64,000 bases of DNA, taken from the IMG/VR virus record IMGVR_UViG_3300036770_007283, one strand, 5' to 3'. The notes below the pieces were generated by a model. It was not told the origin of the DNA. It saw only the letters and a program-made list of their open reading frames with translations, and did no database searches. This DNA comes from a virus (taxonomy: Duplodnaviria; Caudoviricetes). The position numbers and the translations under genes were made by a program. Positions 1 through 27,420 of the stretch are shown piece by piece; the stretch's first letter is position 1; the number at the start of each line of letters is the position of its first letter.

Positions 1-964
1 TTTTTATTAAATCTGTATTACCAGTGCTAATTTCTGTAATGACGGGAAGTCCTACTGTTAAATATTCTAAAAGTTTAGCATTGCCTGCCGAACTTTTATT
101 TTTAGACCATGATGGTGATAAATCTATTCCCAAGTCTGAATTAATTAAATAGTTCCAATGCTCACCCCATGATACTGGCTTATGAACTGTAATATTTTTT
201 GATTTTGAAAAATATTTTTTTAACCACTGAAGATTATCAGAAACCTCTGGCCCAAATTTATTTTTTCCATTTAGATTTAATTTATCCAGCATTTCGGGCG
301 GCTTTGCAAAACTACCTGGTAATATATTTAAATGATACTCTTCTGAAAAATTATTCATTACATCAATTAAAAAAGGCATTTTAGATGGAGAATGCATCAT
401 TCTGCCCATATAAATTAAGTTATGCTTTCTTTTTAAGAATGGCGCATCTTTTAAATTATCTTTTACATATTCTGTGCCCATTTCTGAATAAAAAACCTTT
501 TGCTGTGGATCACCATTAACTTTTTTCATAGAATTCATAAAACCTATTTCTTGACAAAAAAAGAAGTCAGCTGCTTTATATATATAATCAAAAGAAAACT
601 TTGATTTACTAATCCAATTATGTGTCGCGTGTTTAATTACCAGCAAAGTCTTTGTTTTTATACCTGCTGCTTTCTTATCCATTAGATTCTTAAGCGGCTT
701 TATCGAATCAATAACTTTTTCTATTGCTAGGTCTAGTCCTAATATTATTATATCAAAACTTTCTAATAATTCAAAATCTATTTTGGAATAAGGCATCATC
801 TGTATATTATGTATTTTATCTAGTTGCAATCTTGAAACATAAAAAACTTCATGGCCTAAATTAGAAAATCCTTTTGCCAATCCAAAAGATTTATATATAC
901 TATAATGTATTTTGAATTCATTTTCAAAAGGTGAGGCTGTATTTCCTGCAATTAATATTTTCAT
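1..964 (-). CDS. GT-B (GT4-like) glycosyltransferase, 3' end truncated by the window edge; missing from the ORF track
   Basis: Manual translation from ATG at 964 (ATGA overlap with the upstream stop) is open to base 1. It begins MKILIAGNTASPFENEF...GLAKGFSNLGHEVFYV (Rossmann beta1 plus the G-H-E-V motif) and ends ...SAGNAKLLEYLTVGLPVITE (KLLEY-x-x-x-G-L-P-V donor-binding motif). Confidence 0.8.
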   Translation of the reverse strand, partial: MKILIAGNTASPFENEFKIHYSIYKSFGLAKGFSNLGHEVFYVSRLQLDKIHNIQMMPYSKIDFELLESFDIIILGLDLAIEKVIDSIKPLKNLMDKKAAGIKTKTLLVIKHATHNWISKSKFSFDYIYKAADFFFCQEIGFMNSMKKVNGDPQQKVFYSEMGTEYVKDNLKDAPFLKRKHNLIYMGRMMHSPSKMPFLIDVMNNFSEEYHLNILPGSFAKPPEMLDKLNLNGKNKFGPEVSDNLQWLKKYFSKSKNITVHKPVSWGEHWNYLINSDLGIDLSPSWSKNKSSAGNAKLLEYLTVGLPVITEISTGNTDLIK

Positions 965-1449
965 TTTTTTACACAATAATAGATTGACTGTTGTGGTGGT
1001 AAAACCAAATCTTTCTTAAGAACTTCTATTTTATAATCATTTATAAATAATTTTTCAAATGAATCAAAACTTTTATTTAGACATGAAAAAATGAAATGAT
1101 TGAAATTTTTTTGTATATATAAGTTGAAACTTTTTTTATCATCTATGTATTCTAATAGTCCAAGAAAAAGTCCTAACCCTGGATCTTCAATATTAGGCCT
1201 ATCTATATTTAAATCAACTAAAATTGTTAAATCTGTATGTTTAATACTATCAAACCCAAAATATTTTATATCTTTATTTATAAAGTTAACAATGTTTGAG
1301 TCACCACAACCAAAATCATATAGATATTCTGGATTTACTTCGTTTATTTTTTTTGCTGCCGTCATCATTCTTTCTGACCAATCTAAACCTTTGTTAGCTG
1401 GATAATCCTTAAGTAATTTGCAGCCTTTTTCCGCCCATCTATTTGCCAT
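961..1449 (-). CDS. Small class I SAM-dependent methyltransferase
   Basis: Motif I LYDFGCG, acidic residue after beta2 (YFGFD), and an LGLLEYI post-motif. GGAGG RBS upstream. Confidence 0.65.
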   Translation of the reverse strand: MANRWAEKGCKLLKDYPANKGLDWSERMMTAAKKINEVNPEYLYDFGCGDSNIVNFINKDIKYFGFDSIKHTDLTILVDLNIDRPNIEDPGLGLFLGLLEYIDDKKSFNLYIQKNFNHFIFSCLNKSFDSFEKLFINDYKIEVLKKDLVLPPQQSIYYCVKK

Positions 1450-1466
1450 TAGACCTCCCTTCTAAA

Positions 1467-2456
1467 TTATGCATCACATATATTTTCAAAAAATAATATA
1501 ACTTCTTCAATTCTTTTTTCATAGGTCCAATTATTAATAATTTCTTTATATAGATTTTCCGAAATATCTTTTCTTAAACTTTTATCATCTTTAATTTGTA
1601 TTATTTTTTTTGAAATATTAAAAATATTATCATCAACGATTAATCCATTGAATTTATCAACAACAATATCTCTAGACAAACCAACATGCGTAGTAATAAC
1701 TGGAATAGCGCAGGCTCCAGACTCTAACATCATCATTGGACCACCTTCAGATTTGCTTAGGCAAATAACAGCATCCAGTTTATTATACCATTTATTTAGT
1801 TCTATTCTATCCAGGTCTTTTGCAGCCTTAAGGATAACCCCAGCCATCGTGGCAGATTTACTAACCAATTCAAAATTCTTTATAGGATTATTAAAGTTTC
1901 CAGACCATCCCAGCGTAAATTTTTTATTTTCTACTAAGATATTATTTCTTTTTATACAAAAAATTTCATTATTAATTGCTTGTGATACACGAAATATATT
2001 TGGATGTAATCCTTTAAAATTTTTAATAATAAAAGAATTACAACAAGCTAATGCTTTTGTACCTTCAAAATATTTTTTGTAGGTAGTTTGCGCACCTTCA
2101 TTTACCCATTTTTCATTATTTATACACACACCAACTTTATCTAGAGGAAAATCTGTAGATAATAGCCTACCGTCCCAAATTGCTCTGTGATATAAGAAAA
2201 CAATTCCATCATATTTAGAATGATCAAAGATATTTTTTTTTCCATTTTTAGATATAAAATTTTTTTTATATTCTAAAAAGCTTTCCATATTGCTATAAAC
2301 ATTTGCATTATTTACTTCTTCATTTTTTACACTACTATATTCTTTAAGATAAAGTATCTCTATATTATACTTTTTAAAGAGAAGTTTTTTCCAATTTTGA
2401 ACGGCATCATCATATGCCCACCCCCTTACATCTACAATCAAAAGAATATTTTTCAT
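1467..2456 (-). CDS. GT4-family glycosyltransferase
   Basis: SKSEGGPMMMLESGACAIPVITT (intact E-X7-E), GWSGN...KNF motif, and DKFNGLIV. Confidence 0.9.
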   Translation of the reverse strand: MKNILLIVDVRGWAYDDAVQNWKKLLFKKYNIEILYLKEYSSVKNEEVNNANVYSNMESFLEYKKNFISKNGKKNIFDHSKYDGIVFLYHRAIWDGRLLSTDFPLDKVGVCINNEKWVNEGAQTTYKKYFEGTKALACCNSFIIKNFKGLHPNIFRVSQAINNEIFCIKRNNILVENKKFTLGWSGNFNNPIKNFELVSKSATMAGVILKAAKDLDRIELNKWYNKLDAVICLSKSEGGPMMMLESGACAIPVITTHVGLSRDIVVDKFNGLIVDDNIFNISKKIIQIKDDKSLRKDISENLYKEIINNWTYEKRIEEVILFFENICDA

Positions 2457-3490
2457 TAGATAATCTCTTTCATCTTTTCAATAAGCGAATTTTTATTTAA
2501 AACATTAAAAGCAACCTTATTTTTTAACAAATAAGATATTTTATTTATCCATTCTTTTTTATCATAAACATCATCACATATAAACTCAGATGGGTATGAT
2601 TCATACCACCCGCAATTTCTACTCATTAATATATTTGATCCACATAAAATTGCTTCTTTTATTGTGTTAGGTGAAGCATCATAATAGGAAGTGCATAAAA
2701 TAACTTTTGTATTTTTCATTATCTCAAGAACTTCTCTCTGCGAAGATAGGTCCCTACATTCCATATTTTTAATACCATTAAAAATTGAAGAATTCTTACC
2801 AACCACAATTTTTTTGTTCATATCAAACTTTTTTTCTGACATAATATTTATTGCTAATTCAGAATTTTTAACCTTCCTAGAAAGGTTGGAGCAAATAAAG
2901 GCCAAATCCCATTTTCTATCTGTGAAATTTTCACCCAGACAAATATCGTTGTTAAATGCCAAAGAAGTGTCTATGGGGTTTGAAAACTTCTTATTTTCAC
3001 CATAATTTTTAATTAATAATTTTTTACCTAACCAACTATTTGGAACCACCAAATCAGAAGCCCTGATACAAGCCTCTTCCTGCTTGAATCTAATGATATT
3101 AAAACCAGATAGATATTTTTGCGCAGAAATTCCATTTTCTGAAGCAGATGACATTTGAGGTGACCCAGTTACCAAATACACTATTTTTACATTAGGAAAT
3201 AATTCTTTAGAAATAACAGGTGCTGCATAATTTTTTCCAAAAATGACATCTGGTAATCCGCCCAACTGCCTAGTTATTAGCCTATTTAAAATACTCTTCT
3301 TATCCTTACCTGGATCAAACTTCCAGACACCACCAATTTTATCAGGATCTACATTTACCCTGCTAGATTCAAAAAATACTCCTGCAACCATATGGCCAAA
3401 ACTTCTAAGATATTTTATTAAGGCATAGCTGTTGGTTGCTGCACCGCCATAATAAGGATATTGTGTACTTGTTATAAGAATTCTAGCCAT
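2456..3490 (-). CDS. GT-B glycosyltransferase (divergent GT4-like)
   Basis: N-terminal RILITSTQYPYYGGAATNSYALIKYLRSFGH, RKVKN motif, and SYYDASPNTIKEAILCG (D-X7-E). Confidence 0.75.
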   Translation of the reverse strand: MARILITSTQYPYYGGAATNSYALIKYLRSFGHMVAGVFFESSRVNVDPDKIGGVWKFDPGKDKKSILNRLITRQLGGLPDVIFGKNYAAPVISKELFPNVKIVYLVTGSPQMSSASENGISAQKYLSGFNIIRFKQEEACIRASDLVVPNSWLGKKLLIKNYGENKKFSNPIDTSLAFNNDICLGENFTDRKWDLAFICSNLSRKVKNSELAINIMSEKKFDMNKKIVVGKNSSIFNGIKNMECRDLSSQREVLEIMKNTKVILCTSYYDASPNTIKEAILCGSNILMSRNCGWYESYPSEFICDDVYDKKEWINKISYLLKNKVAFNVLNKNSLIEKMKEII

Positions 3491-4361
3491 AACTAATACC
3501 TAAAAATGGTTGAAATCCTTTTGATCTAGTCTTCCAAGACCACTCTTTATATATATGTTCTTTAATAATTTTTCCATACTTAGATATCAAGGCAGGATTA
3601 TTTTTATGAAATTGAATGGACTTTTTAAGTTCTTCCTTTTTAGATGCAGATGTAATTGCTCCACATTTTTTAATCTGAATTACATTCCCTACGTTGGTAG
3701 ATATAATAGACCTTCCACAAGCACCTGCTTCCAAAATAGGGTTAGGCGTACCCTCTGATTCGCTAAAACAAATTAAGGTACCAATAGAATTATAAAAGTC
3801 TAACATCTGCTTAGCGTTTAAATTATCAGACTGAAAAGCAGTTTTAAGTTGATAATCTGGACCTAAGGTTTTGAAGATATCATTTATTATATCGAATCTT
3901 TTCACTGCCCTCTTGTGATTGCCTACCCAACCAAAAACACTGCTATATTTAGAAGGTTCCGTTGTACTGTAAAAATTTTCTGTGTTGACACCGAAAGGAG
4001 TATTGTAAACCTTCTTAGGATAAGCAGGCCTAAACTCACTAAACAACAAATTACTAGAGGTACTAATAGCATCGTAATTATTTAAAACACTAGATATGCT
4101 TAGCGGTCCATTACGACCAACATGGCTAGATATTGTTGTTACCAAACGATAGTTACGCCTAGCAGATATTTTTTCACGAATATAAGTATGGATAGGCCAA
4201 TTCAAAGAATAAACTAGATCAAAATTATTAAAGTTTAAATCATTAACATCTCTAAAGTGCTTTATCAAAATATCATGTTTTGAGAAGTATTGTTTAAGAT
4301 TAGCTGCCCTATTAGCCAACGCCCAGGTATAACTATCCACAATAAACAATGCTCTAGCCAT
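3483..4361 (-). CDS. GT4-family glycosyltransferase (start revised to the ATG overlapping the upstream TAA)
   Basis: SESEGTPNPILEAGACGRSIISTNVG (E-X7-E), GWVGN...KRF motif, and PFGVNTENF. TAATG coupling at 4361. Confidence 0.9.
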   Translation of the reverse strand: MARALFIVDSYTWALANRAANLKQYFSKHDILIKHFRDVNDLNFNNFDLVYSLNWPIHTYIREKISARRNYRLVTTISSHVGRNGPLSISSVLNNYDAISTSSNLLFSEFRPAYPKKVYNTPFGVNTENFYSTTEPSKYSSVFGWVGNHKRAVKRFDIINDIFKTLGPDYQLKTAFQSDNLNAKQMLDFYNSIGTLICFSESEGTPNPILEAGACGRSIISTNVGNVIQIKKCGAITSASKKEELKKSIQFHKNNPALISKYGKIIKEHIYKEWSWKTRSKGFQPFLGISYG

Positions 4362-5278
4362 TAAATCATTCCAAAGATCTGATTCCATTTTAAAAGATAA
4401 TCTTTTATATGAAATTTTTCAATAGCAATTTGACGTGATGATAAGCTGTAATCTTTTTGCATATTTTCATTATTAATCAGCATTTTTAACCCAGTCAACA
4501 GCTCATCTTTATTATTTGATAGAATGGCAGTCTTACCATTTTTAAAGTACAAGTCTATATCAAAATTATTAGTTGATACCAATGGCATTCCGCACATCAC
4601 TGCTTCGGCACGACTTCTAGGCATTGCAGATGATTGTGTTGGGTTAAAATAAACATTGTATTTATTATATATTCTTACAAGAGCTTCCAAACTTTCTGCC
4701 ACATTATCATTTCTGTTGATGTCCGTATTTCCATGGCCCACCAAATCTATAAGCCCTAATTCATCGCTGATGCCTTTCCATAAATTATATCCCATAATTT
4801 GGGAACGCTTCTTGAAAACATTGGCAACAGTTAGGATACGATTATTTTTTTCTAAGTCTATCTTTTTAAATTCTTCAGGATCAAAACCATGAACAATATG
4901 ATAGTGATTCATTTTAGGATAGCGATGCCTGTTAGAATTTAAAACCGACAAGCAGTTCCAAACTACATGCCTACATTCTCTTGGAAATGGAAATGCATTA
5001 GTGGTTTGTACTACTGCAATAGGTTTCGCACCACGCCTAATAACATTTGTATATTTTATAGGTAGAATCGGGGAACGAATTATCACCGCATCAAAATTAA
5101 TCTTGCTAATTTCTTTTTCATAAATTAAATTAACATTACTATTTAATGGCCTGTGCATCCCATTCCAGTTTGGCTTACCACCATCAATACCCACTAGATA
5201 AAAATCATGACCAGTTTTAAAAAACTCATATTGATGACCTTGGTGACAATACCAGTCTAAAATCTTTAGTTTTTTCAT
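4361..5278 (-). CDS. GT4-like glycosyltransferase
   Basis: HGFDPEEF, NPTQSSAMPRSRAEAVMCGMPLVST (S-X7-E), and FKNGKTAIL. Confidence 0.8.
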   Translation of the reverse strand: MKKLKILDWYCHQGHQYEFFKTGHDFYLVGIDGGKPNWNGMHRPLNSNVNLIYEKEISKINFDAVIIRSPILPIKYTNVIRRGAKPIAVVQTTNAFPFPRECRHVVWNCLSVLNSNRHRYPKMNHYHIVHGFDPEEFKKIDLEKNNRILTVANVFKKRSQIMGYNLWKGISDELGLIDLVGHGNTDINRNDNVAESLEALVRIYNKYNVYFNPTQSSAMPRSRAEAVMCGMPLVSTNNFDIDLYFKNGKTAILSNNKDELLTGLKMLINNENMQKDYSLSSRQIAIEKFHIKDYLLKWNQIFGMI

Positions 5279-6366
5279 TTGAAATCCGAAAGCTCTCTAG
5301 AGATAATTTTAGATACAGATTCAATATCAAAGCTTTTTCCAATCTCCCTAGCTTTTTCAGCTTTATGTCCATACTTATCATGATTCTCGTAAACATCTCT
5401 AAATAACTTCATAAGATGGTTAACATCTGGATAGGCCCAATTTTGATAAGAACCATAAAGCTGGCACCAATCCATATCCACCACTGGCCCAAGAGAATGA
5501 TTTATAATGTGTGCAGACTGATCAGATAGCCATTCTGTAACACCACCATACCTTGTAACAATTATTTGCTTCTTGCTTAGCATTGCATCATGAATTGGCA
5601 TTCCCCAACCTTCACCATGATGTGAGCTAACAAAGCAGTCACCTATATTATGGAGGGCTCTAATTTCTTCTGTTTTTATAATATCTCTCATCAAATAAAT
5701 TGGAGGATAATATTTTTGATTAAGCTTTCTTTTTATCTCTAAAATATCTTGCTTAATTCCCTCATAATTGGAGCCTTTTATATTAAGTGGGTTTACTTTT
5801 AAAAGTAGAATAACCTTGTCACCCTCTTTGAAGGTCTTGTAATAAGCATTGAGTAAGGTTTTGTATCCCTTTCTATTCTGCCACTGAAAAATAGAATAAA
5901 ATTTATAAACATCATTACTAACGGTATATCCGTCTGATAAGTTTGATGGGATTACAGCTCTTTTTTCTGTATAGAAATCTTCTGATGGCGTTGGAACGAC
6001 TTTTATTTTTCCCCTAAAGCCAGCACGTTGGCAAGCCTCTTTGGTTAGATTACATGGTGCCCAAATTTCATTTAAATAACCTAAACTGCTAGCCCAAAAC
6101 CTTGGTAATCTATCTGCTTCCCAATAAAAATAACCAATTTTATAACTTTTGGACTTGTGACGATTGTAAGGTGGGCAGTGTAAGTAAAAATCTACATTTG
6201 TTATAGAGTCATAGTTATTTAAAGAATCTAATAACCCAGAGGTTCCACTTCCATTTAAAACAAACTTAGTTCTAATTCCTGACATAGAAAATGCTTTAGT
6301 AAAATTAATTACTGCATTTCCATATCCAGTATGTGTATTGGCAGGACCAAAAAACCTAACTGGCAT
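5275..6366 (-). CDS. GT4-like glycosyltransferase
   Basis: TGYG N-terminal motif, YWEADRLP, RKGYKTLLNAY, and HGEGWGMPIHDAM (E-X7-D). Confidence 0.85.
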   Translation of the reverse strand: MPVRFFGPANTHTGYGNAVINFTKAFSMSGIRTKFVLNGSGTSGLLDSLNNYDSITNVDFYLHCPPYNRHKSKSYKIGYFYWEADRLPRFWASSLGYLNEIWAPCNLTKEACQRAGFRGKIKVVPTPSEDFYTEKRAVIPSNLSDGYTVSNDVYKFYSIFQWQNRKGYKTLLNAYYKTFKEGDKVILLLKVNPLNIKGSNYEGIKQDILEIKRKLNQKYYPPIYLMRDIIKTEEIRALHNIGDCFVSSHHGEGWGMPIHDAMLSKKQIIVTRYGGVTEWLSDQSAHIINHSLGPVVDMDWCQLYGSYQNWAYPDVNHLMKLFRDVYENHDKYGHKAEKAREIGKSFDIESVSKIISRELSDFK

Positions 6367-7974
6367 TTAGATATACTCACCCTTTAAAACAACAACATTT
6401 CTTTCCGCCTCTTGTTTTTTAAAGAAGCTCTGTACTTCAAAAACTGTATTAACAAATTTTTGGCTATTAACAACAGCATTATGATTATCACTTACAAATT
6501 GCATTGCTGCGCCAATCACTTCTAAATTACCTATATTTTCTTTGATAACATTAGATGCTGCTTCTACATCTGAATCAATCTTAAAACCAGTAACACCATC
6601 CTCTATTAGGGATGGAATCGATCCGACCATATTAGAAAAGACTGGGACACCGGAAGACATTGCTTCTATAATTGAAATGGGTGTCCCCTCCATATTGGAA
6701 GCCAAGACAAATCCATCAAAAATATTATAATATTCCTCTGGATTATTTACATGTCCTGCAAAAATAACATTTTTAATATTGTCGTTATTAACTGCCGAAA
6801 TTAAATTATGTTTTTCTGGCCCATCACCCACTATGACAAAATAGCAGTCCTTCATTACTTTGGCTAAAGATATAATATAGTTAAGGTTCTTTTCTTTGGA
6901 TAATCTGGCTACAGTTCCTAGCACTGTAGCATACTTTGGGATACCCAATTTTTCTCTAAGCTGAAAATTTTCCTTAGGCATAAATCTATCTAGATCTATA
7001 CCAACCGGAACTACTTCCCTTAGAAAAGTGCCAGAAATATCGTGGCCTAATAATTTAGAGACAAAGATTACTTTATCTATGTTTTTTCTTTCCTTCTTTA
7101 AGGATAGAGCGCCAGGCCAAGTAAAATCACTATGATAGATTTCTATCAGCGAGCTAGCCATCTCATTATCTTCTTTCATCTTAACTAAGGTTTCATAAAT
7201 ATCTAGTCTGTTATAGTAAACTATAAAATCATAATAATTACTTCTAAGTACACCAGGTAATTGGTCCAGACTTTTTACAACTTTATGTACAACGCTGGGC
7301 CTGGTTATTTTTTTCTGTAATATATTTTCATTTAAATAAAGAATTGTGATTTGATATTGTTCTGGAATTCTATTGATAATACTCTCTAAATAGACTTCTG
7401 CACCGCCATAAATATGATAGGGAATAATAAATGCAATCTTGTTAAACATCCCATTTTCAGGGGTAGGGATAAAAATCTTTTTTATATCCTTGTAGTTTAC
7501 TCTGACTGGTTTAAACACTTTTTCAAGGCCTATACTTCTTACTTCTATATTCTTTTCTGTTGGATGTGCAGCTTTAATTATTCCTGTATCTAAGGTTTTT
7601 TCTTGCTGTTCTACATCCACAATTATCCTGCTTAATTCTAGACTCCCGTAAACATTGTTTTCTCTAGATATCTTAATGCTAGACAATCCAAAATTAAAAT
7701 TAGATTCGTAAGTGTAAGTTTTTTCGGTTAAGGAATTCCCTTCAAATTGAATTAACTCTTTGAATAAGGATTCTCCTTTTCCTCCGATGATTTCTAAAAA
7801 CATTTTCCCATCGCCAGTTCTTTTTTTGCCAATTATTTTAATATTATGCTTACCCTGCCTAATATTAATTGGCTGCATAAAGTTGGCTGATTTAAGAACT
7901 AGGATTGAATCACTTTTGATATCTAAACCTCTACCTGACCAGCTTTTATTTTTAATAGTATCAAAAATTCTCAT
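6367..7974 (-). CDS. GT4-family glycosyltransferase with an extra N-terminal beta-rich domain
   Basis: YGGAEVY, VGIDLDRF, GTVARLSKEKN, IVGDGPE, and SNMEGTPISIIEAMSSGVPV (E-X7-E). About 170 extra residues precede the GT core. Confidence 0.9.
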   Translation of the reverse strand: MRIFDTIKNKSWSGRGLDIKSDSILVLKSANFMQPINIRQGKHNIKIIGKKRTGDGKMFLEIIGGKGESLFKELIQFEGNSLTEKTYTYESNFNFGLSSIKISRENNVYGSLELSRIIVDVEQQEKTLDTGIIKAAHPTEKNIEVRSIGLEKVFKPVRVNYKDIKKIFIPTPENGMFNKIAFIIPYHIYGGAEVYLESIINRIPEQYQITILYLNENILQKKITRPSVVHKVVKSLDQLPGVLRSNYYDFIVYYNRLDIYETLVKMKEDNEMASSLIEIYHSDFTWPGALSLKKERKNIDKVIFVSKLLGHDISGTFLREVVPVGIDLDRFMPKENFQLREKLGIPKYATVLGTVARLSKEKNLNYIISLAKVMKDCYFVIVGDGPEKHNLISAVNNDNIKNVIFAGHVNNPEEYYNIFDGFVLASNMEGTPISIIEAMSSGVPVFSNMVGSIPSLIEDGVTGFKIDSDVEAASNVIKENIGNLEVIGAAMQFVSDNHNAVVNSQKFVNTVFEVQSFFKKQEAERNVVVLKGEYI

Positions 7975-7982
7975 CTTTAAAC

Positions 7983-9089
7983 CTATTTGTAAAGATCTGT
8001 AATTTTAGTGGCTGCACTTTCCCAAGTGAATTTTTGACAAGTATTTTTGGCTTCTTCTGCAAACTTTTGCTTAAGCAAAAGACTATTTCTATAAGCCATC
8101 AACATAGACTCAATAATCAACTCTTTCTTGGGGATAAATGTTTTTGCACCAGGAGACGCAATCCAATATTGGTATTTGGAACCAGCATCAATAGACTCTA
8201 CATCCATTAGTAATGAATTTTGATTATTTAAAAAGTCTAACTGCCCAGAGCATCTTGGCGCTATGACTAAATTACCTGCAGCCAACCCCTCTAATAGAGG
8301 CAATCCAAACCCTTCAGATGATGACGTGCTAATTAATGCATCGCAGGCCTTATAAAGTGGAATCATACTGGGAAGGTTTTGCTGTATGATTTCAATTCTA
8401 GGTAAACCTCCTGGACGGTCTTTATGCTTAGCTTGCAGAAGCTTTATAGCATTTCTAACGTCTATTTCAAAGTTATATGGCTTTCTATCCTTTGGCATAT
8501 CTAAGCTTGTTTTTAATACCAGGCATACATCATCCTTATCAGAGAAGGTGGTGTAGTATGCATCAATTAAAAGGTCTATATTTTTTCTGTAATGTGGGAT
8601 AGATATATTTAAAAACTTGAATTTTCTATCAGTTTTAAGCTTAAAGGTTTCTTCCGTAGAAAAATCATCTAAGTTGATGCCGTGAGGAACTACCACACAT
8701 TTAGATTCTGGCCACCCAGAGTTAACAAAAACCTCTTTTGAGAAATTGCTAGATGGCAAAACAAAATCAACATGCTTAATTGAATCTAACCACATCTTTG
8801 GCATGATTTCTGTTTCGTAATTATAAATTGCCATTTTTAGTTTAGATTTCTTTTTAAATCTAGAATAAAAATTTCTAGGCAACGTGTAGCAAATATCAAT
8901 ATCTGGAATTGCAATATCTCGATCAATCCTGGAAAGTAAATCTGGTGGGATAAAGTCTTTGCCATTGATACTTTTCAAGTATAGCTTATGGCCCTTGCTT
9001 TTAAATTGTAATAGTAAATTTCTCATAGTAATGGCCCAACTGTGATGGGTTCCCAACATAGATTCGCTTCTAATATTTAATGTAGACAA
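7983..9089 (-). CDS. GT4-family glycosyltransferase (TTG start)
   Basis: VVPHGINLDDF, RKNIDLLIDAY, and SSSEGFGLPLLEGLAAG (E-X7-E). Confidence 0.9.
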   Translation of the reverse strand: MSTLNIRSESMLGTHHSWAITMRNLLLQFKSKGHKLYLKSINGKDFIPPDLLSRIDRDIAIPDIDICYTLPRNFYSRFKKKSKLKMAIYNYETEIMPKMWLDSIKHVDFVLPSSNFSKEVFVNSGWPESKCVVVPHGINLDDFSTEETFKLKTDRKFKFLNISIPHYRKNIDLLIDAYYTTFSDKDDVCLVLKTSLDMPKDRKPYNFEIDVRNAIKLLQAKHKDRPGGLPRIEIIQQNLPSMIPLYKACDALISTSSSEGFGLPLLEGLAAGNLVIAPRCSGQLDFLNNQNSLLMDVESIDAGSKYQYWIASPGAKTFIPKKELIIESMLMAYRNSLLLKQKFAEEAKNTCQKFTWESAATKITDLYK

Positions 9090-9104
9090 AGTACACCACC
9101 CGCG

Positions 9105-9132
9105 ATTATATTACGTGCTATATATTTAACAA
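9105..9132 (-). promoter_or_regulatory. Candidate sigma70-type promoter for the glycosyltransferase island
   Basis: Minus strand TTGTTA (9132-9127), 16-nt spacer, TATAAT (9110-9105), preceded by an A/T-rich UP-like tract. The predicted leader would be very short. Confidence 0.4.
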
Positions 9133-9154
9133 TCTATCTAGTTTATTATTTATT

Positions 9155-12100
9155 TTATAAAGTACATGGGAAAGGGCCTTCTACGAAGACTCCTACTTCC
9201 GTGCTTCCGGTGATGAAATAACATTGATCATCTATAACAACTGGTGATTCAAAACAGGAGCCAATTCCAATTCGGCTTAAATCATCAACGCTTAATTCGA
9301 TATCCTTATTCTTAAATCCTGCTTTCTTAAGGTAAACACCAAAATTTAAAACAGTCCTATTGGTCTTGGTCATAGCATCGAATAGAATATTCCTTGTGTT
9401 AAAAGTAGCAATACCAGTATTTGGATTCAAATCTATGCCAACCTTAAAGATCATTCCGGTGCTATCATCTAGATATTCCACTACAAGTTTTATATTGGAA
9501 GATATTGTGAAAGAAGTTGTAGTGTCTGCATCTGGCTCAATTACAAGACCCTTTATAAATCCAGGAAGATGACCTAGCTTTATTTGCAAAGAAGTATATA
9601 AAGATGTAATATCTATACTGATTTCGCTACCAGAGACTATAGACCCAGGGCTAAAGCTTTTCATTAATGAAAGATCTTGTTCTAGTGGTATATTAGACCA
9701 CTTTCCAATATTATCTGCATTTAAAAGCACCAAAGGTATTATATTAAAGAAGTCTGTTAAAAAGTCGGTGGTTTCTGATGTAAATACCAAAGTGGCAGAC
9801 ACTATATTTGTTTTTCTTGGCAGACTAAATGGCAAAGTAATTATTGCTCTATCAACTACACTTGTTAAAGAATCTCTACCTAATGTTAATGAACTTGGTG
9901 AGCTGTCTGTTGTGTAACTTGAATTGAAAATTACTTCACTCAATCTAACAAAGAAAGATAGGCCTGCTGTAGGTGCGTTCTCTTGATTAATTTCAAAGCT
10001 CATCGTAGCTGGGCCTGTTCCAGGGTGCATCTCTGGGTTGGTTCCTATTTTAATATACTGCCCGAATGAATCGACAGTAGATTCGAACAACTTATCTGGA
10101 ATTACATAGTAAGCTGATATAACATCATTTATTCTTCTAAACCTAAAGAGTACATCATCACCTACAACATCTGGTGCATCTACCTCAAAGTTAAAAGTGC
10201 TAATTATAGTGTTTAAATTATTTTTAATAACACCACCATAGAAAAGCTTGGTTGTATAGCCTGCTATAATTTTCCATCCTAAATTAAGGGTTGCGGTTGT
10301 GTTTGCATTAACAACTTCCAAGGTTGCAAAAGAATAAACCGCACCATTTATTAAGGAACTAGAAGGCCAAGTGGTTCTTGTTGCCTTAAAGTCAACAACG
10401 AAATCACCAGTAAAATTTTGAACAGAAGCTGGTGAATTTAAACGCCCAAACCTTTTTCCTGTGTTAGAAGATGTAGTTAGTTCAAAAATCGCTGGTGTAT
10501 TTATTATAGCAGGATTGCTGATACTCACAATAGGATCATTTAAACCATCCAAGGTCCAATTATTAAAAGCATTGTAAGAAGCATCTATAAAGTTTTCTGT
10601 AATGACCTCTATTGCACTTGATGTATCAGTGGCTTGACTTAAATCCGTATACCCATCAATATATCCATCAACCAACGCATCGACGCAAATAGAAGCCACT
10701 GCTGTAGAAAACTTAACTCTTCCCTTTGTAATGTCCGTATTAGACCCAATATCTTCACAGCCAACCAAAGTTCCATCTGAATATCTCATAGCAGGAAAAC
10801 CGGCTGCAGTTAGGCAACTACCATCTTTTGACTTAAGGAAGCTGGAATATAAATCTACAGAACAGTTAGTAATGCTTCCTGGTGGAAGTGGTATTTTAAT
10901 ATTGGTATATTCAAAATCGCCATGATGTGGAACACCTGGGGCAGACAAGATATTTCCATCTGGAATGTATAGATCACCAGGTATGTAAGTTTGGTTTTTA
11001 TATATTGGACTTGCTTCATTGGTTGGGAGACAATCCGTCTCTACGCACTGGCAACTACCGTCTTTTTCTTCGATAAAAGAAGAACCCACGAATCTTCTTA
11101 AATCATAAATCTCAACAAAAGAAGATTGATAAGGTGCATCTATAAAGTCAATTTCAAACTCGAAAGATGAAAATGGTATAGATAGAAGCTTAGGATTATC
11201 TGCAAATAAATTAACTTCAGAACGACTAGTAATTTCAAAATTAAGACCAGTGCTACCATTAAAAGTAGTTTCTTCACCAAATAAATCTGTTACGCTTAAA
11301 GTAACTGTATAACCATCGGGTGCTATTTCTTTGCTAGCAATTAGGTATTGACTTCCAGCCCCTGGATCATCTAAAGTTAAAACATCACCAACGCTTATGG
11401 CTAAGGCAATCTCTTTGCTTGGTGAAGTGAAAGTTGCTGTGGAAGCGCCGACAGCTGTAGAACCTGTAAATAGATCATCCAAGAAAACTCTTGGGTAGTT
11501 ATTTTCTTCCAAGATGTTTTCTAGATATAAGGTTAAGGTTTTGAATTCTTCTGGAATAGAGAAATTTATGTAACCATCTATGGCATTTTCCAAAATCTCT
11601 ATATCAGTTCCATCCACACTTCCATCTAGATTTAGATCCGCCTTAATAAAATCAACAACGTCTATCTCACGATTTAAAATTTTTCTTTCTGTTTCTTCAG
11701 AATTTATGGTGTTGCCAACTAGATTTAGCATCTCGCCTAGATCTGTAGTTGTTAGCTCCTTATCATCATTTAGATCACCTGCTTTAACAACCTTACATTC
11801 TACCTTTACGATTCTATATCTATAATTACAATTACAGTTTATATCTGGTGTAACTACTCTGTTTATTAGATTTGAATTTAATAAATCCTGGCTTGGATTT
11901 ACAATAGTAATTGTATTTAGTCCAATCAACCCTGGCTTGTCAAGTAAGCCGCTGATTCTGTAGGCACTCCTTACGTTATTATCATTGATTTTTGCCAAAA
12001 GTAAAGGAATACTTTCTGATGTAATTTTTTGAAGTTCTTCACTATTAACAACAGAAAAGGATGGTGCATCTAGAACTCTGGTAAATACAAAGTTATTAGT

Positions 12101-13687
12101 TCTTGGATGAACATTGGGGTCGGAAAAGGCTTCTTGTTGTGAAAGTACTAGGTAATTATCACTACCTTCTGCTACAGTTCTTAAATTTAAATATCTTTCA
12201 AAATAAGAAATTTGTGTGCTTCCAACGAAATCTGTTGTTTTTGGAACGGTGACTGCAATACCGCTATCTGTATAAGCGGTTCCATCTGTAACTTCAATTG
12301 CGTCAGTATGAATTACATACCATAGTGAAGAATTTGAATCATTTATAAATCTTTTAGTGATGGGGTCATATTCTATATACTTAGATTGTTGCTTTCCAAA
12401 TCTTTCTAATACAGTAAGTGGTACGCCTAAATCAGACTTTTTATAAACCTTATCAAATCCTTTTTCTACGATAACCGTACCGACCTGGTTATTACCCCTT
12501 CTTGATATCAATATCGCATAGTATTTATCTTTCTTGATGCTTGGATCAATATTGGGGTCTGCAATTAAAGTTCCTGCAAAGTTAAAACTTACAACCTGTG
12601 GTGTATCATTTAGTTTATAGCCTAAGGTTTCTAAGTCTTCTTGGCTAAAAGAAACCTCTGCTAATGGTGTAACTTCTGGATCAAAGTCTATAAGATCATC
12701 TGGTACTGCATCTGAGCTGCAAACTACGCTTGTAACTAACTCATGAATGCTTACTACTAAGTCGCCAGAGAAGTCAAATTTATTTTCCAGCGGAAGCGTG
12801 GTATCGCCCTCTACTGAAAGTAATAAATCTACTCTTTGTATGTTGTTAACTTTAGATAAAAACTTTTGACCATAAGAAATGGATACTAAGCCAGACTTTT
12901 CAAACTTAAGTTTTTCGCTACCTTCCAATTCAATATAAAGATCATTAATATTGTTATTTGGACCCAAAGCTATTTCAATTTCTTCTTCCATAGATTTTCC
13001 AACGGAGGAAGAAATATAATTGTTGATATCAAAGTTTGGTGATTCAATTTGGTAGCTTGCCTTTTCTGATGGATATGCAGATAGTGGTGGTGCCACTCTA
13101 ACAATCATATACCCATTATTTTTAGAAATAAGGTTAAGGCTTTCTACTTCTGGGTCTTCATAAGTTTTACCTATGCCACCAGAAAAATTGTTAAAGAATA
13201 CGGCTATAATTGATGTGTAGAATTTTTTAGTTACAAGCTTAGTATTTTTATAAAATTCTAAAAATTCTGCAACTAACTCACCTTGTGAGTTTTCGCCATC
13301 AAAAGCTCGTCCCAGGATTAAAATCTTGGTTCTTTTCTTTCCCATCACTTCTGTATTAACTAATTCAAATTCTACCCTAGAACCTTTTACTGGGTCCGTT
13401 GGCTGACGGTCTAATGTAATTCCGCGACCATCATAGGAACCAGATTCTAGATAGAATTGGGATGGGTTTTCACCTGACAAGCAGTACTTAGAAGGAAACC
13501 TTGTGTCTAGTAAGATAACTTCTTCAAATGGGGAACCCCTAACAATGCCACTTCCATGAAAATCAGATGCCAAATTAGATACAATAGCATTATTATTAAT
13601 TTGCTCTGAATCTAAATCCTGCTCTGTGATTCTATGGCCATCATAAAAATTGACTCTTTTGGTAACAAGCCTTTCCTTCTTAGACAT
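9155..13687 (-). CDS. Baseplate-attached tail fibre-like protein with an internal dockerin-like domain
   Basis: The N-terminus RVNFYDGHRITEQDLDSEQ...FHGSGIV resembles the baseplate-attachment motif of contractile-system fibres. It is the last gene of the baseplate block and carries a paired EF-hand dockerin signature. The ATG at 13687 has a GGAG RBS. Confidence 0.65.
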   Translation of the reverse strand: MSKKERLVTKRVNFYDGHRITEQDLDSEQINNNAIVSNLASDFHGSGIVRGSPFEEVILLDTRFPSKYCLSGENPSQFYLESGSYDGRGITLDRQPTDPVKGSRVEFELVNTEVMGKKRTKILILGRAFDGENSQGELVAEFLEFYKNTKLVTKKFYTSIIAVFFNNFSGGIGKTYEDPEVESLNLISKNNGYMIVRVAPPLSAYPSEKASYQIESPNFDINNYISSSVGKSMEEEIEIALGPNNNINDLYIELEGSEKLKFEKSGLVSISYGQKFLSKVNNIQRVDLLLSVEGDTTLPLENKFDFSGDLVVSIHELVTSVVCSSDAVPDDLIDFDPEVTPLAEVSFSQEDLETLGYKLNDTPQVVSFNFAGTLIADPNIDPSIKKDKYYAILISRRGNNQVGTVIVEKGFDKVYKKSDLGVPLTVLERFGKQQSKYIEYDPITKRFINDSNSSLWYVIHTDAIEVTDGTAYTDSGIAVTVPKTTDFVGSTQISYFERYLNLRTVAEGSDNYLVLSQQEAFSDPNVHPRTNNFVFTRVLDAPSFSVVNSEELQKITSESIPLLLAKINDNNVRSAYRISGLLDKPGLIGLNTITIVNPSQDLLNSNLINRVVTPDINCNCNYRYRIVKVECKVVKAGDLNDDKELTTTDLGEMLNLVGNTINSEETERKILNREIDVVDFIKADLNLDGSVDGTDIEILENAIDGYINFSIPEEFKTLTLYLENILEENNYPRVFLDDLFTGSTAVGASTATFTSPSKEIALAISVGDVLTLDDPGAGSQYLIASKEIAPDGYTVTLSVTDLFGEETTFNGSTGLNFEITSRSEVNLFADNPKLLSIPFSSFEFEIDFIDAPYQSSFVEIYDLRRFVGSSFIEEKDGSCQCVETDCLPTNEASPIYKNQTYIPGDLYIPDGNILSAPGVPHHGDFEYTNIKIPLPPGSITNCSVDLYSSFLKSKDGSCLTAAGFPAMRYSDGTLVGCEDIGSNTDITKGRVKFSTAVASICVDALVDGYIDGYTDLSQATDTSSAIEVITENFIDASYNAFNNWTLDGLNDPIVSISNPAIINTPAIFELTTSSNTGKRFGRLNSPASVQNFTGDFVVDFKATRTTWPSSSLINGAVYSFATLEVVNANTTATLNLGWKIIAGYTTKLFYGGVIKNNLNTIISTFNFEVDAPDVVGDDVLFRFRRINDVISAYYVIPDKLFESTVDSFGQYIKIGTNPEMHPGTGPATMSFEINQENAPTAGLSFFVRLSEVIFNSSYTTDSSPSSLTLGRDSLTSVVDRAIITLPFSLPRKTNIVSATLVFTSETTDFLTDFFNIIPLVLLNADNIGKWSNIPLEQDLSLMKSFSPGSIVSGSEISIDITSLYTSLQIKLGHLPGFIKGLVIEPDADTTTSFTISSNIKLVVEYLDDSTGMIFKVGIDLNPNTGIATFNTRNILFDAMTKTNRTVLNFGVYLKKAGFKNKDIELSVDDLSRIGIGSCFESPVVIDDQCYFITGSTEVGVFVEGPFPCTL

Positions 13688-13726
13688 CAAAAACTCCGTA
13701 CTTTTTCCTAGAAAATTAATAGAGGT

Positions 13727-16700
13727 TTAGCACCTTAATTTTTTAAATTTAACTAATGCATTAGTATGAGCAGGTTTTAACCTATTTACCAAGTCAATAA
13801 TTAAATCTTCTACTTCTCCGTTATTTATACCAATAACTTTATTAAAATTATCTAAAACCTCAATATCAAAATTATATATTCCTCTGACTGGATCAATTAC
13901 AGTAGCAAACTTATCTATTTTATTAAGATCTGCATCAAAATCTATAAGTAACGTTGTTGCATCATCTTTTATTACTGGCATAACTGTATTTAAGTTACTT
14001 GAGTAATTTAAGTCTACTGCATTGCCACCGGAATCTCTAATGACAGTTCTCATAACTCTACTAAATCTAATATTATCCATTCTAGCATTACAGCTTAATT
14101 GACCAAAAACATCTGAACCAATAGAAACAAGCTTGAATTCATCAAATAGATTTATATTATATTCTTTGTTTCTTATCTGACCTTCTTTTTGTGCAAACTG
14201 GCCGTAGACATATTCAGTTCCGTAGATTAGTCCAGTACCATACGTTACGAAGCCACCTTCTTTGCCATCACAGAATATTCTCATTGTATCATAAAAAGAA
14301 TTAGTCTTATACATACAAACTACACGATGCCAAGTATTCTTCTTCCAATCAATATCAATCTTAACAACGTTATCTATTCCTTCTGCGGTGATTCCAAAAA
14401 CTAGTTGATTAAATTCATTTTTAAATATAGAAAATCTATCGCCATTAGAACCAAAGGGCACATAAGTAACTACAACGTCCACATTATGTCCTGGCAAAGA
14501 CTCTGCCAAATATACCTTCTTACCATCTGGTGATAATCTACATCCAATAGAGAAATTCTTGTCCGACCCAGTTCCGCCCTCTAATCTTCCAGAAATAGGA
14601 CTCCTAGATATTTCATCGAATAAAATTGTATCTGCTTCGCTAGATATATATAAATCTTTAAACTCTTGTGTTTTCTTAAGCAACTTAATAGATAGTATCT
14701 TTCTGGCAGGGTTAGGCAATTCAATGATTGTGGATGTCATTGACTTGACACGTTCTTGCTTTCCAGAGAATATATCAACATAATATTTTATTTCTTTGTC
14801 AATTGCCGTATCTATAACTGGGCTAATCCAAAGCTCTATAGTCCCTTCATCTTTTCTAAACTTCCCATCATTGTTTAAAAGTAGAAGACCTTTACCACTT
14901 GTAAAGTTTCCTGACCTCATAAACATATCATTTACACTGTTATTGCTCTTTGGAAATTCTTCTACGTTTCTATAAAATTCCGCTTCATTAAATAATGGAC
15001 CACCTTCTGCACGATGAACCTCATAGAATGTCTTTGTGGCATCATCTAAACTAAATCCCCAGTTTATCATCTTAGAAATAAATCTGGCAGAATCATTGAC
15101 GATTTCTAATAACTGTTCTTGCTGCGTCCTGCTGAGATTGTAAGTTATATTATTGTATGTATCTAAGAATTTAGTTCTTCTAAGTCTTCTTGCCTGCAAT
15201 TCAATTGGATTATCAAATCTTAGCAGGGTTAGGGTTTGACTATCGGCACAAGATGGATTAGATTTATTATAACCATCCGTTACACTTCTAGTTCCAGAAG
15301 TGTAAGCTTCTGTTACCCTAGTGTCACTTGACATTTCAGAAATAATTTTAAAGTCATCTATAATACCACCAAACTGCTCTTTCTCATTAAAATTAGAACC
15401 AATATAAAGATCATGGCCAATTTCTGGAAGATTTAAGGTTAGGTAAGCAGGATATTCTAAATTATAAAAGCCTGGGAAAATTTCAAATGGATAAGTTCCA
15501 AATGAGCCTACTGCACTTAAAATAAGATGGCCGTTTCTATATTCAAATACTTCAGCCCTTACACCACCATTATCAGAAACGGAAATTGGATTGGTTTCCA
15601 AAATAGAGATAATTGCTGCTTCTAAATAATCAGGATCAATCACTAGCAAGCTTCCAGCAATCTTAGTTACAGTTTTAAAATACTTCTTGCCGTCTATAGT
15701 TCCATTTTTACTTACAAAGTAAGTTTCTTCATTGATACCATCGGTAGTTTTTCCATAAATAGTTACTGTATTAATTTGACCATCTAGATAGCCATCCTGA
15801 TAACCATCCTCATATCCATCAAAGTTGCAATAGTTTATATTATCAGAATCAAAATATAAAGATAACAACCTTCCTAGATTTTGTTTGAAAACCAAACCAG
15901 ACTCAGAAGTTAAACTATGAAATTTTTCTGAGTTATCTATATTAATAACGAAGTCTACACGATAACCAAGACCGGTATAGGGTGTAGGGTCAACAGTACT
16001 TACGATAGTCTTATCTAAAACTATCCTTGTAATCTTTATATCTTGAAGTGATACGGGCTCTGTGCCATGACTTCTAATGACGCTCTTACCGCTGAATAAA
16101 GTATCGTTGTCATCATTCTTGTAAGAAGAAGATGATAGTAACAACTTTTGCTTGCAGTTTTCTAAGTTAAGCCCATAAGTCTCTATATGAACATCAATAT
16201 CTGTTGGTTTTACTGTCTCAACAAAATTACAATCACTATCCTCACCAATAAATTCTATAATTTTCTTATCTAAATCTGCCCTAAATTGTGGCTTAATAAC
16301 ATTCCTTCCTCTAATAACATTTATTTCGCCCATATTTACTGTATAAAAAATTCCTGACATTTCTTTTTTAGTGCCATCATTTTCAGTTCTAAATATAGAA
16401 ATTCTTGAATTCCTAATGTCAGTTAAAATATTTGACTTAATACCGGCAGTTGCTGGGAACTTAAAGTTAATATCGCTTGCAGAAACTTGGAAAGCAACTA
16501 TATCTATATTGTCACCACTACCCAAGGTAACCTGTGTAGAATCAATTACTGACTTAATAACATATTCTTTTCCAATTAAAGTTGGGGCCATAGTTGAAGA
16601 AACAAAGATGAGGCTTCTTCCAACCATACTTGGTGTAAAGTTTGCTTGATTTGACTTAAAGATTGCACCACCAGCGGAAATTGTACCATCTGTAAATGGG

Positions 16701-26500: not shown

Positions 26501-26874
26501 ATTACGAAGTTTCCAATAGTTTTATATTGAAGATTGCCCCTGGTAGTTACAACCGTATTGGCAGGTATGGAAATATCTGTATTTAGATTATTTACTGTAA
26601 AGACTACTATTCCGTTAGCAGGCGCACCAGTTCTTCTTGTAATTCCAAAGTTATTTGCCCAACGATCTAAATCTTTACCAGTTGCCAATTCGGGAGATTG
26701 CTTTTGTGAAACAGTTAACATAGAACTATGAAGTCTTTGTAACTGATCGGCCTGTACATCAATAAATAGATCCCTAGCCACAGTACCTGGCTTTGTATCC
26801 AGGTTTGGCTGTGTTAATCTTAATCTTTCAATGATAGAATTAACTATCTCGCTAAAAGTTCTAAATATTGCCAC
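23557..26874 (-). CDS. Baseplate J-like wedge protein (expanded, GTG start)
   Basis: PGTVARDLFID, ATGKDLDRWANNFGITRR, GTTGNI, FNGGTNTESDSVFRAR, GTGGKVDLYI, and C-terminal DIINSVTSISGVDSV. Confidence 0.9.
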   Translation of the reverse strand: MAIFRTFSEIVNSIIERLRLTQPNLDTKPGTVARDLFIDVQADQLQRLHSSMLTVSQKQSPELATGKDLDRWANNFGITRRTGAPANGIVVFTVNNLNTDISIPANTVVTTRGNLQYKTIGNFVMSVAEKNRFAATATRLRSSLDLAGINDSFAIEIPVRAINSGTTGNISSLQVIEHNLRDSVRVTNLTSFNGGTNTESDSVFRARVFSVFSGANTGTAFGYRNAALGVTGVNDAIIIEPGNTLMLRDGTETIQVNDGSFRILNSGTGGKVDLYILGQQLEEIVESYIFTDRSGTGNASDERNDYILGQSTLDTTLTSEERRVLAFNNGILPQQPATAVISVIGSESGVLAEKLVDQNGIVSGNYELIKDTNPETGGSPFGFDKIRFISSEKQVVNESIIKQSLNSVDPLRFSSIKIVNNVYQDISVNAENSKVNSVDRTIIKLNHSPVVTVSRVLNKTTGEVYVVEDQNLDPDAAINLTGEIVISGKTLPSPSDILSVNYIWRLYFDKYIDYNGKYTGAQFVDQFVNDSIDWGTSNGIKAEVSVIEKTNDGLEYQVSVSNDISRITSLYSAITATGTVQLVQGIGGMLVNGVVLPSTEVNITNIISVKNETGVELYNTIKNDGSFSGKTIYLPSDSPVGSSINATVFYNKLELYTISNGDGAFSNNIITLPSSDILTTNAILDEVDSLYLTGEPIYVDYIAQISELLPSNSLTLLPINGTSLSNRLFNNTLSELSGSNQPVFYNISNAGTILGTQRFGPTRLSITISSVTRAGKIKVNGETLTRLQLEVVAGTSISGLQFDLTSAIKFALSLTTFPATFGIARVDNIESIDDSSKKFDLMGHVLSNNTYGLGVVELDTTLSPTKFKLPATANNNALSFSSGEKVVVDLLVYNSNDVEELYFPGNSKVITNKVFSRVNRVSVSSGFRSPAGSLIGTIRIDPTSQPSVGLSYSSDYKFTAPIEGERLTVRYNLNRLISDVTVNLENVRCITADVLVKEAPILYVDVRGEIIVNNDFTSESNTVIENSLNSVVNLLNSSTLGSTIDYSDIINSVTSISGVDSVNISLFNESGSVGRRTYIKALNNQSIAAGDVRITAVSRKDFKIT

Positions 26875-26883
26875 AGTTTTTCC

Positions 26884-27315: not shown

Positions 27316-27420
27316 TAACTTTAACAATCTCCTTACTATTTTATTAAAAATAATAGAAAGAAAATTGTTGAAGGATGTAATCATCAACTTTCAAAGATAA
27401 ATATTTTATCTAGTATTTTT

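Follow-up and report, generated by a model that had tools for sequence, protein, structure and literature searches.

The virus record IMGVR_UViG_3300036770_007283 of IMG/VR (Duplodnaviria; Caudoviricetes) carries an island of glycosyltransferase (GT) genes beside the genes for two giant putative tail proteins. We analysed a stretch of 64,000 nucleotides (nt) of this record, here called the window, which represents bases 11305-75304 of one 177,932-bp virus contig (GC content 35.4%, no terminal repeat), and followed the island into the contig to the left of it. Four of the transferases are kept among relatives of this phage and the other enzymes are swapped, which indicates that the phage builds its own complex sugar chain. 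The contig was rated 52% complete (CheckV) and the whole genome is probably larger than 300 kb; assignment to the 'jumbo' size class is thus an estimate from a 177,932-bp contig of this completeness. Runs containing the sequence are subsurface metagenomes of a single study, none of them RNA. Among deposited phages (50,697 records) there was no megablast match to the island and no tblastn match to the tail sheath.

Gene content of the island

Nine minus-strand ORFs fill positions 1-9089 of the window; neighbouring ORFs either overlap by 1-28 nt or lie 0-17 nt apart. The initial annotation had described them as eight tightly packed GT-B enzymes and one methyltransferase, a description borne out by Pfam matches, ESM-Atlas models and an S-adenosylmethionine (SAM) motif. 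Seven of the nine ORFs matched the Pfam families Glycos_transf_1/Glyco_trans_1_4, some of them under the gathering score, and most also matched phrog_2170 ('glycosyltransferase'). The first ORF of the island ends at 9089, 65 nt from the stop of a gene for a 1511-aa protein at 9155. This is the distance that had been given to the last baseplate/fibre gene; the label 'fibre' comes from gene position and from a Laminin_G_3 domain in the neighbouring giant protein. As 148 of the 152 ORFs of the contig lie on the minus strand, the shared strand of island and tail genes says little. A promoter/terminator scan yielded matches not above shuffled expectation, with one promoter-like match in the 65-nt gap before the island.

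The four genes nearest to the tail genes encode the enzymes that we call core GTs 1 to 4. Core GT 1 (7983-9089; GT4 family, 368 aa) matched PF00534 (8.9e-10) and phrog_2170 (1.1e-32) and contains the EX7E motif EGFGLPLLE; its real start may lie ~10 codons downstream of the TTG. It also gave a sub-threshold direct match to PF20706, 'GT4 in conflict systems' (E 0.0079), a family for which many of its homologues have precomputed matches. Core GT 2 (6367-7974; 535 aa) matched PF00534 at 4.2e-28. Core GT 3 (5275-6366; GT4, 363 aa) shares 24% identity with core GT 1 and matched phrog_2170 (2.3e-20), with Pfam matches just under the gathering score, and core GT 4 (4361-5278; GT4, 305 aa) matched PF00534 (3.8e-07) and PF13524 (1.7e-06). 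Five further ORFs follow. Three of them encode an accessory GT4 of 301 aa (3483-4388; Pfam match, EX7E motif EGTPNPILE), an accessory GT4-like protein of 344 aa (2456-3490; sub-threshold PF00534, 1.9e-4) and an accessory GT4 of 329 aa in a low-GC cassette (1467-2456; PF00534 3e-16, EX7E motif EGGPMMMLE, GC 26.8%). The fourth (961-1449) encodes a small class I SAM-dependent methyltransferase of 162 aa with motif I YDFGCGDS, whose Atlas model matched class I SAM methyltransferases (TM 0.80, feature score 0.95); the ORF had no Pfam, PHROG or NCBIfam match. The last is a 383-aa GT4 (contig 11129-12280) of which the N-terminal 325 codons lie inside the window (2-976). It has a weak PF00534 match (2.5e-5), and its Atlas model matched GT4 clusters with TM 0.69-0.76.

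The initial annotation had the island running off the window edge, and it indeed continues for ~9.2 kb to the left. The genes found there, given in contig coordinates (locus L001), lie on the same strand. Next to the 383-aa GT4 are genes for a SAM methyltransferase (10513-11106), a CsaB-like polysaccharide pyruvyl transferase (9617-10516; PF04230) and a GT4 (8703-9614). Nucleotide-sugar genes, which the initial annotation had proposed to look for at this side, were found in the form of a short UDP-sugar dehydrogenase, a GalE/TviC-like NAD-dependent epimerase (6826-7761) and a GDP-mannose 4,6-dehydratase (5534-6502; TIGR01472 341 bits, under the equivalog cut-off of 415). The dehydrogenase (7780-8613; UDP-glucose/GDP-mannose dehydrogenase family, 277 aa) has the NAD-binding and central domains and is without the C-terminal UDP-binding domain; the next gene lies 19 nt downstream, and the protein may be truncated or an unusual short form. 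A 108-aa protein without assigned family is encoded between epimerase and dehydratase (6495-6821). Beyond the dehydratase, 476 nt (5059-5533) contain no ORF of at least 80 codons and may hold small genes or a regulatory region. The remaining genes encode a thioredoxin (4729-5058), a GT4 (3807-4724), a soluble GT2 of 236 aa (3096-3806) and another GT4 (2096-3118). The TubZ-like tubulin gene that comes next (706-2118) is not part of the island. Altogether the island measures ~18.3 kb and encodes 12 GTs (eleven GT4-type, one GT2), two methyltransferases, one pyruvyl transferase and three sugar-nucleotide enzymes.

Six of the eleven GT4-type enzymes score above the PF00534 gathering score of 26.4 bits (59.9, 30.2, 98.5, 38.8, 46.8 and 45.3) and the other five reach 21-26 bits. 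A canonical E-x7-E motif of the type EG..(6)..E is present in seven of the eleven and is absent or atypical in the 383-, 344-, 305- and 363-aa enzymes. Models of core GT 2 and of the 383-aa enzyme have the GT-B fold; the other nine were judged by sequence. Pairwise identity among the island transferases is at most 33%, with most pairs below BLASTP detection, so they are distinct enzymes and not recent duplicates. Tandem duplication was rejected as the origin of the array at this level of identity between paralogues.

Conserved core and variable cassette in relatives

We compared the locus with ten relatives from freshwater, marine and subsurface samples (31-67% identity), found via a baseplate query and protein look-ups; a scan of viral contigs with core GT 1 as the sole query gave no confirmed locus. 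Core GT 1 has 467 homologues, the best 120 of which share 52-67% identity and lie on contigs of up to 420 kb. In all ten relatives, a giant Laminin_G_3 protein is followed by a protein of ~1500-1700 aa and then by a GT of ~360 aa; in a marine Tara contig (L014), proteins of 609 and 911 aa stand in for the ~1500-aa protein. Nine of the ten go on with GTs of ~475-535, 365 and 305 aa, the core GT 4 position being occupied by a GT of ~300-311 aa. In the most distant relative viewed in detail (G001), the first GT was confirmed and further GT4s were present that were not matched to the core. The check proposed with the initial annotation, whether relatives keep the GT island linked to the baseplate/fibre locus, thus came out in favour of linkage in 10/10 genomes, down to 31-46% identity.

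The two giant proteins encoded upstream of the island are one of 1511 aa (9155-13690, minus strand), a putative distal tail or fibre protein, and one of 3273 aa (13727-23548, minus strand), putatively a fibre or baseplate-attached protein, with a Laminin_G_3/ConA-like domain at residues 3028-3106 (PF13385, 2.1e-09). Orthologues of the 3273-aa protein occur in all relatives at 36-61% identity (61% in L006, 56% in L008, 55% in L009 and 36% in G001), and the corresponding values for core GT 1 are 61, 57, 54 and 46%. The 1511-aa protein has orthologues of 52-59% identity in L006, L008 and L009; in the same three genomes, core GT 3 orthologues share 52-62% and core GT 4 orthologues 46-52% identity. 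The baseplate wedge protein shares 47% identity with that of G001. Core GT identities thus fall in step with those of the structural proteins, which is the pattern of vertical inheritance within the structural region. From these sequence comparisons, the four core GT4 enzymes appear to have been inherited vertically together with the structural genes. Gene order is retained despite occasional insertions among the core genes, namely small ORFs, homing endonuclease-like genes, a GT25 and an opposite-strand gene. LAGLIDADG-like homing endonuclease genes lie in L009 between the giant tail genes and inside the transferase core (L009:3451-4185 and L009:14673-15533), and in L097 an opposite-strand gene of 697 aa separates core GT 1 from core GT 2 (L097:11078-13171).

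The accessory genes behave differently from this core. The 301-aa GT4 and the 344-aa GT4-like protein each have a 57% orthologue only in the closest relative sampled (L006/L007), where the latter has a weak PF13439 match, and the 329-aa GT4 (1467-2456) has no orthologue in the relatives. Farther from the tail genes, genes for NeuB, for a KdsA-like synthase and for one or two CMP-sugar synthetases are present in five relatives, three of which also have a sugar isomerase (SIS) gene; one relative carries sulfotransferases and two carry further GT4s. The cassette of G001 encodes RmlA-, RmlB- and RmlD-like proteins, a cupin, a DegT aminotransferase, a formyltransferase, GlmS and two GT2s, whereas the genome studied here has a uronate, 6-deoxyhexose, pyruvate and methyl set. 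The distal cassette varies among relatives like a serotype locus, and most of its variants would add negative charge, be it through nonulosonic acid or 3-deoxy-D-manno-octulosonate (Kdo), through sulfate, or through uronate and pyruvate. A search for Maf-like and sialyltransferase families among the unassigned cassette genes of the relatives returned only one GT-like match, a weak one, and one HAD-phosphatase-like match. In G001 (132 kb), GlmS ends the island and is followed by opposite-strand genes for glutamine synthetase and an FMN reductase (L012:15429-19236).

Part of the cassette of the present genome (contig 8703-13760) has the lowest GC content of the contig, 23-30% compared with a gene mean of 35.7 +/- 4.3%. 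Low GC content and the lack of orthologues in the relatives fit a later acquisition and suggest that this part was recently acquired. The pyruvyl transferase gene (L001:9617-10516) within this ~5-kb stretch has the lowest GC content of all genes of the contig, 23.2%.

Core GT 2 stands out among the conserved enzymes by its domain structure. Its AlphaFold model, based on an alignment of 39 homologues, has a mean predicted local confidence (pLDDT) of 87 and shows an all-beta N-domain (residues 1-122) that is joined by a disordered linker (125-174) to a GT-B catalytic domain (178-515). The catalytic domain resembles those of BshA, PimB' and HepE (TMt 0.72-0.78, root-mean-square deviation (rmsd) 3.3-4.7 Å). 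Folded alone, the N-domain is a beta-jelly-roll (pLDDT 93.6) whose best match is a porphyran-binding carbohydrate-binding module (CBM; VIA Z 12.7, rmsd 2.4 Å over 117 residues). Families CBM4/6/16/22/36 follow with Z 11-12.4, and toxin and ephrin-receptor domains that share this fold score about as well as the CBMs. The models suggest that the transferase may use a CBM-like module to hold the glycan during extension, with the proviso that a shared fold is not a shared function. In a search of 5.8 billion proteins, ~80 full-length homologues of core GT 2 were found, mostly on long contigs of phage size.

One homologue of core GT 2 is filed under a Pacearchaeota bin. Likewise, the closest 'cellular' matches of the GDP-mannose dehydratase (67% and 64%; L016 and L017) lie on 8-17-kb contigs of metagenome-assembled genomes labelled Pacearchaeota and Actinomycetota; these contigs and the binned core GT 2 homologue are probably mis-binned phage. 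An attempt to infer the host from the dehydratase failed, as the remaining matches came from many different phyla, with identities no higher than 52%.

Upstream of the giant tail genes lie the baseplate wedge genes (23557-27387, minus strand), encoding a gp6-like protein of 1105 aa and a gp25-like protein of 167 aa (phrog_6, 5.6e-40; phrog_120, phrog_2669), and beyond them the tail sheath gene, recognized by a remote PHROG match. PHROGs gave nothing for the 3273-aa, the 1511-aa or other giant proteins, and for the 1511-aa protein there was no Pfam or PHROG family except a weak dockerin-like match, and no usable ESM Atlas match. The tail module as a whole gave only remote PHROG matches to sheath and baseplate families, and a T4-like (Tevenvirinae-type) backbone was not found. 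Between the baseplate and tail-chaperone genes, a protein of 2049 aa (window 29382-35531, minus strand) has five hydrophobic segments clustered at residues 1297-1454. We take it to be probably the tape measure, with a region inside it that would insert into the membrane.

Possible acceptors of the glycan

All island proteins are predicted to be soluble, with no membrane segment. Only three ORFs of the contig have at least two hydrophobic segments, the highest count being the five of the 2049-aa protein. No match to the initiating transferase family PF02397 was obtained on this contig (52% complete), nor any to the Wzx flippase family PF01943 on this contig or on the 132-kb contig of G001 (52% and 30% complete), whereas the controls were matched in both searches. 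Overall, the 178-kb contig (~52% of the genome) yielded neither a flippase nor a polymerase nor an initiating transferase. A system of the Gtr type (GtrABC) was not recognized either: the contig encodes no polytopic membrane protein and its single GT2 is a soluble protein of 236 aa. We conclude that the glycan is assembled in the cytoplasm and that any export would be left to host machinery.

We hypothesize that a virion protein is glycosylated, a reading that we prefer tentatively and at less than even confidence. The island would then be a phage-encoded, wholly cytoplasmic assembly line for a complex and probably acidic glycan. As judged by homology, the GDP-mannose 4,6-dehydratase, the UDP-sugar dehydrogenase and the 4-epimerase would draw on the GDP-mannose and UDP-sugars of the host to produce donors of 6-deoxyhexose and hexuronate, and the four vertically inherited GT4s would lay down a conserved core. 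Core GT 2 would grip the growing glycan or the acceptor via its CBM-like domain on the flexible linker. The eight lineage-specific transferases (seven GT4, one GT2) would lengthen the chain, and the pyruvyl transferase and the two methyltransferases would decorate or cap it. As acceptor we would guess first at one of the two giant proteins whose genes lie directly upstream, the 1511-aa protein being a candidate. The particle would thereby bear a 'serotype' glycan specific to its clade, a situation akin to that of chloroviruses, mimiviruses and some mycobacteriophages. What speaks for a virion acceptor is the soluble pathway with its own sugar supply, the vertically inherited core, for the most part restricted to phage-size contigs, and the fixed site after the giant tail proteins. 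The core-plus-variable logic resembles that of chlorovirus glycans, and the mycobacteriophages offer a precedent. It is possible, and we put this more cautiously, that a widespread lineage of uncultured huge phages inherits a four-enzyme core with a CBM-tethered member and places a conserved inner glycan on its giant tail proteins. Exchangeable cassettes for nonulosonic acid/Kdo, sulfate, uronate/pyruvate or formamido sugars would then provide each phage with a mostly anionic outer 'serotype' of its own. If so, this would be the virion equivalent of a bacterial core plus O-antigen, an arrangement not known so far from tailed phages this large.

Several points weigh against a virion acceptor. 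The link between the glycan and a virion protein is inferred, and the 1511-aa and 3273-aa proteins are putative fibre proteins by position and the Laminin_G_3 domain. No Ser/Thr-rich (mucin-like) acceptor tract was present in any ORF, the best having 14 of 30 residues. The searches covered about half of the genome, and genes for export or DNA modification may lie elsewhere; TET/JBP dioxygenases (PF12851) were not matched on the contig in a weak search in which the positive control gave no match either. Genes for lysogenic conversion or receptor modification also typically adjoin receptor-binding genes, and GT4, pyruvyl transferase and Kdo or nonulosonic acid genes are typical of the synthesis of lipid-linked surface polysaccharides. 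Lipid-linked acceptors are the normal targets of soluble GT4s, which can act on undecaprenyl-linked ones in concert with host flippases. Comparable islands have been read as modifying the O-chain of the host (PMC7029224, PMC7824862).

A second reading is remodelling of the host envelope, which we regard as possible if rather doubtful. The soluble transferases would act on host lipid-linked intermediates at the inner face of the membrane, and host flippases or ABC exporters would export the products. An altered O-antigen, capsule or wall polymer would block superinfection or keep progeny from sticking to the debris of lysed cells, and the linkage to fibre genes would be a functional tie between receptor binder and receptor modifier. 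The GT4, GT2 and CsaB-like pyruvyl transferase genes of this island, and the Kdo/nonulosonic acid genes, GT8 and GT25 of its relatives, match those of surface-polysaccharide loci, and the cassette is hypervariable like an O-antigen locus. Moreover, host modification is the published reading of islands of GT and nucleoside diphosphate (NDP)-sugar genes by tail fibres (PMC7029224; PMC7824862 section 3.4.10; PMC12801897). On the 178 kb, however, we found neither an initiating transferase nor a flippase, a polymerase, a ligase or a membrane protein of the Gtr type, and the 132 kb of G001 likewise gave no Wzx match. A core inherited at the rate of structural proteins across habitats is also unexpected if the enzymes track fast-changing host glycans, and the core enzyme that joins a CBM-like domain to a GT4 occurs mostly on long phage-size contigs.

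We consider it unlikely that the acceptor is another cytoplasmic molecule, be it a free or small-molecule-linked oligosaccharide or host proteins glycosylated for takeover or anti-defence. The solubility of all island enzymes would suit such an acceptor, as would the small-molecule glycosylators BshA and MshA among the nearest solved relatives of core GT 2 and the PF20706 matches of core GT 1 and its homologues. Those matches are weak and restricted to the generic donor-binding half of the enzyme. A set of twelve transferases with capping enzymes speaks for a long, defined glycan and not for a single glycoside, and the CBM-like domain suggests that the ligand is a sugar polymer. Hypermodification of DNA, in which sugar chains on hydroxymethylated phage bases would evade restriction, appears very improbable to us. 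It is true that 5-hydroxymethylcytosine is glycosylated by GT-B enzymes of phages, in some cases with more than one sugar (bioRxiv 10.1101/2023.12.21.572611), and that the Atlas neighbours of the 383-aa GT4 include one cluster of DNA alpha-glucosyltransferases. That neighbour is one among many equal-scoring generic GT-B rows, however, and pyruvylation, Kdo/nonulosonic acid, sulfation and an array of 12 transferases are unknown for DNA. No hydroxymethylase of the thymidylate synthase family (PF00303; controls matched, half of the genome covered) and, in the weak PF12851 search, no TET/JBP dioxygenase was found on the contig.

Relation to known systems and significance

Glycosylation of the virion, the reading that we prefer, has counterparts in eukaryotic viruses. 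Chlorovirus PBCV-1 encodes the transferases A064R, A111/114R and A075L and the GDP-mannose 4,6-dehydratase A118R, and its N-glycans consist of a conserved core with strain-specific decoration. Like PBCV-1, the present phage encodes soluble transferases and a GDP-mannose dehydratase, which are predicted to work in the cytoplasm, with no need of membrane machinery, and to build a core with a variable outer part; methylated sugars, here predicted from genes, are a further likeness. In contrast to our phage, PBCV-1 is a eukaryotic virus of another capsid lineage with multi-domain enzymes of the GT-A type, and its acceptor has been shown by structure and mass spectrometry. In Megavirinae (mimivirus), clade-specific fibril clusters of transferases and genes for rare bacterial-type sugars coat the particle fibrils; these are giant eukaryotic viruses in which sugars and acceptor have been established by experiment.

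Among phages, O-glycosylation of the virion is reported for the mycobacteriophages Che8, Corndog and Myrna (Freeman et al. 2023, as cited in PMC12619734 and PMC11256854). As in our proposal, phage GTs modify the phage's own particle. According to the citing papers, the mycobacteriophages have 2-4 transferases, actinobacterial hosts and glycans on the C-terminal tails of capsid or tail-tube subunits, whereas the present island has 12 transferases with their own sugar-nucleotide supply and no recognized acceptor tract. A literature search on glycan shields and on glycosylation of phage capsids brought up nothing but papers on antibodies that do not bear on the subject. Moraphages are aquatic phages of 200-307 kb with four GT orthogroups in their near-core genome and with glutamine synthetase genes as a hallmark (PMC12619734). 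Four core GTs are likewise described here, and a glutamine synthetase gene lies by the island of G001; moraphages may be the same or a related lineage. The moraphage paper gives no linkage to fibre genes and no variable cassette (PMC12619734).

The initial annotation knew of no characterized equivalent in contractile-tailed jumbo phages. That statement needs some restriction, as similar islands have in fact been described (PMC7029224, PMC7824862, PMC12801897), none of them experimentally tested. In pelagimyophages and cyanomyophages, islands of GT and NDP-sugar genes by tail fibres go under the name 'host recognition cluster' (PMC7029224). Those of jumbo cyanophages, for example P-SSM2, S-SCSM1 and S-SCSM2R, are termed 'lipopolysaccharide (LPS)/capsular polysaccharide' clusters (PMC7824862 section 3.4.10; PMC12801897), with 13 transferases in S-SCSM2R (PMC12801897). 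These clusters resemble ours in that a large aquatic contractile-tailed phage carries many GTs and NDP-sugar dehydratases, epimerases and dehydrogenases of variable content by its fibre genes. However, the phages that carry those clusters are T4-like and their islands are described as non-syntenic, whereas here an invariant, vertically inherited core of four GT4s, one of them CBM-fused, occupies a fixed site. Variable GT/NDP-sugar islands beside fibre genes were thus already known from large aquatic myophages. What is new is a lineage without match among deposited phages, in which an invariant four-enzyme core with a CBM-fused member lies at a fixed site and is clearly split from the cassette.

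GT-rich islands beside fibre genes are common in large phages, and both host conversion and glycosylation of the particle have been proposed in the literature, with no experimental test in large contractile-tailed phages. The clade described here is a clean test case, as it combines four invariant soluble core enzymes, a glycan-binding-like domain and cassettes of predictable chemistry. With the glycan on the particle, 'serotypes' of phages would come to matter in aquatic and subsurface viromes, for attachment to the host and stability of the particle as well as for grazing and the evasion of defences. With the glycan on the host, the island would represent a system by which a large lytic phage rewrites cell surfaces. 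Either outcome would inform the annotation of similar islands.

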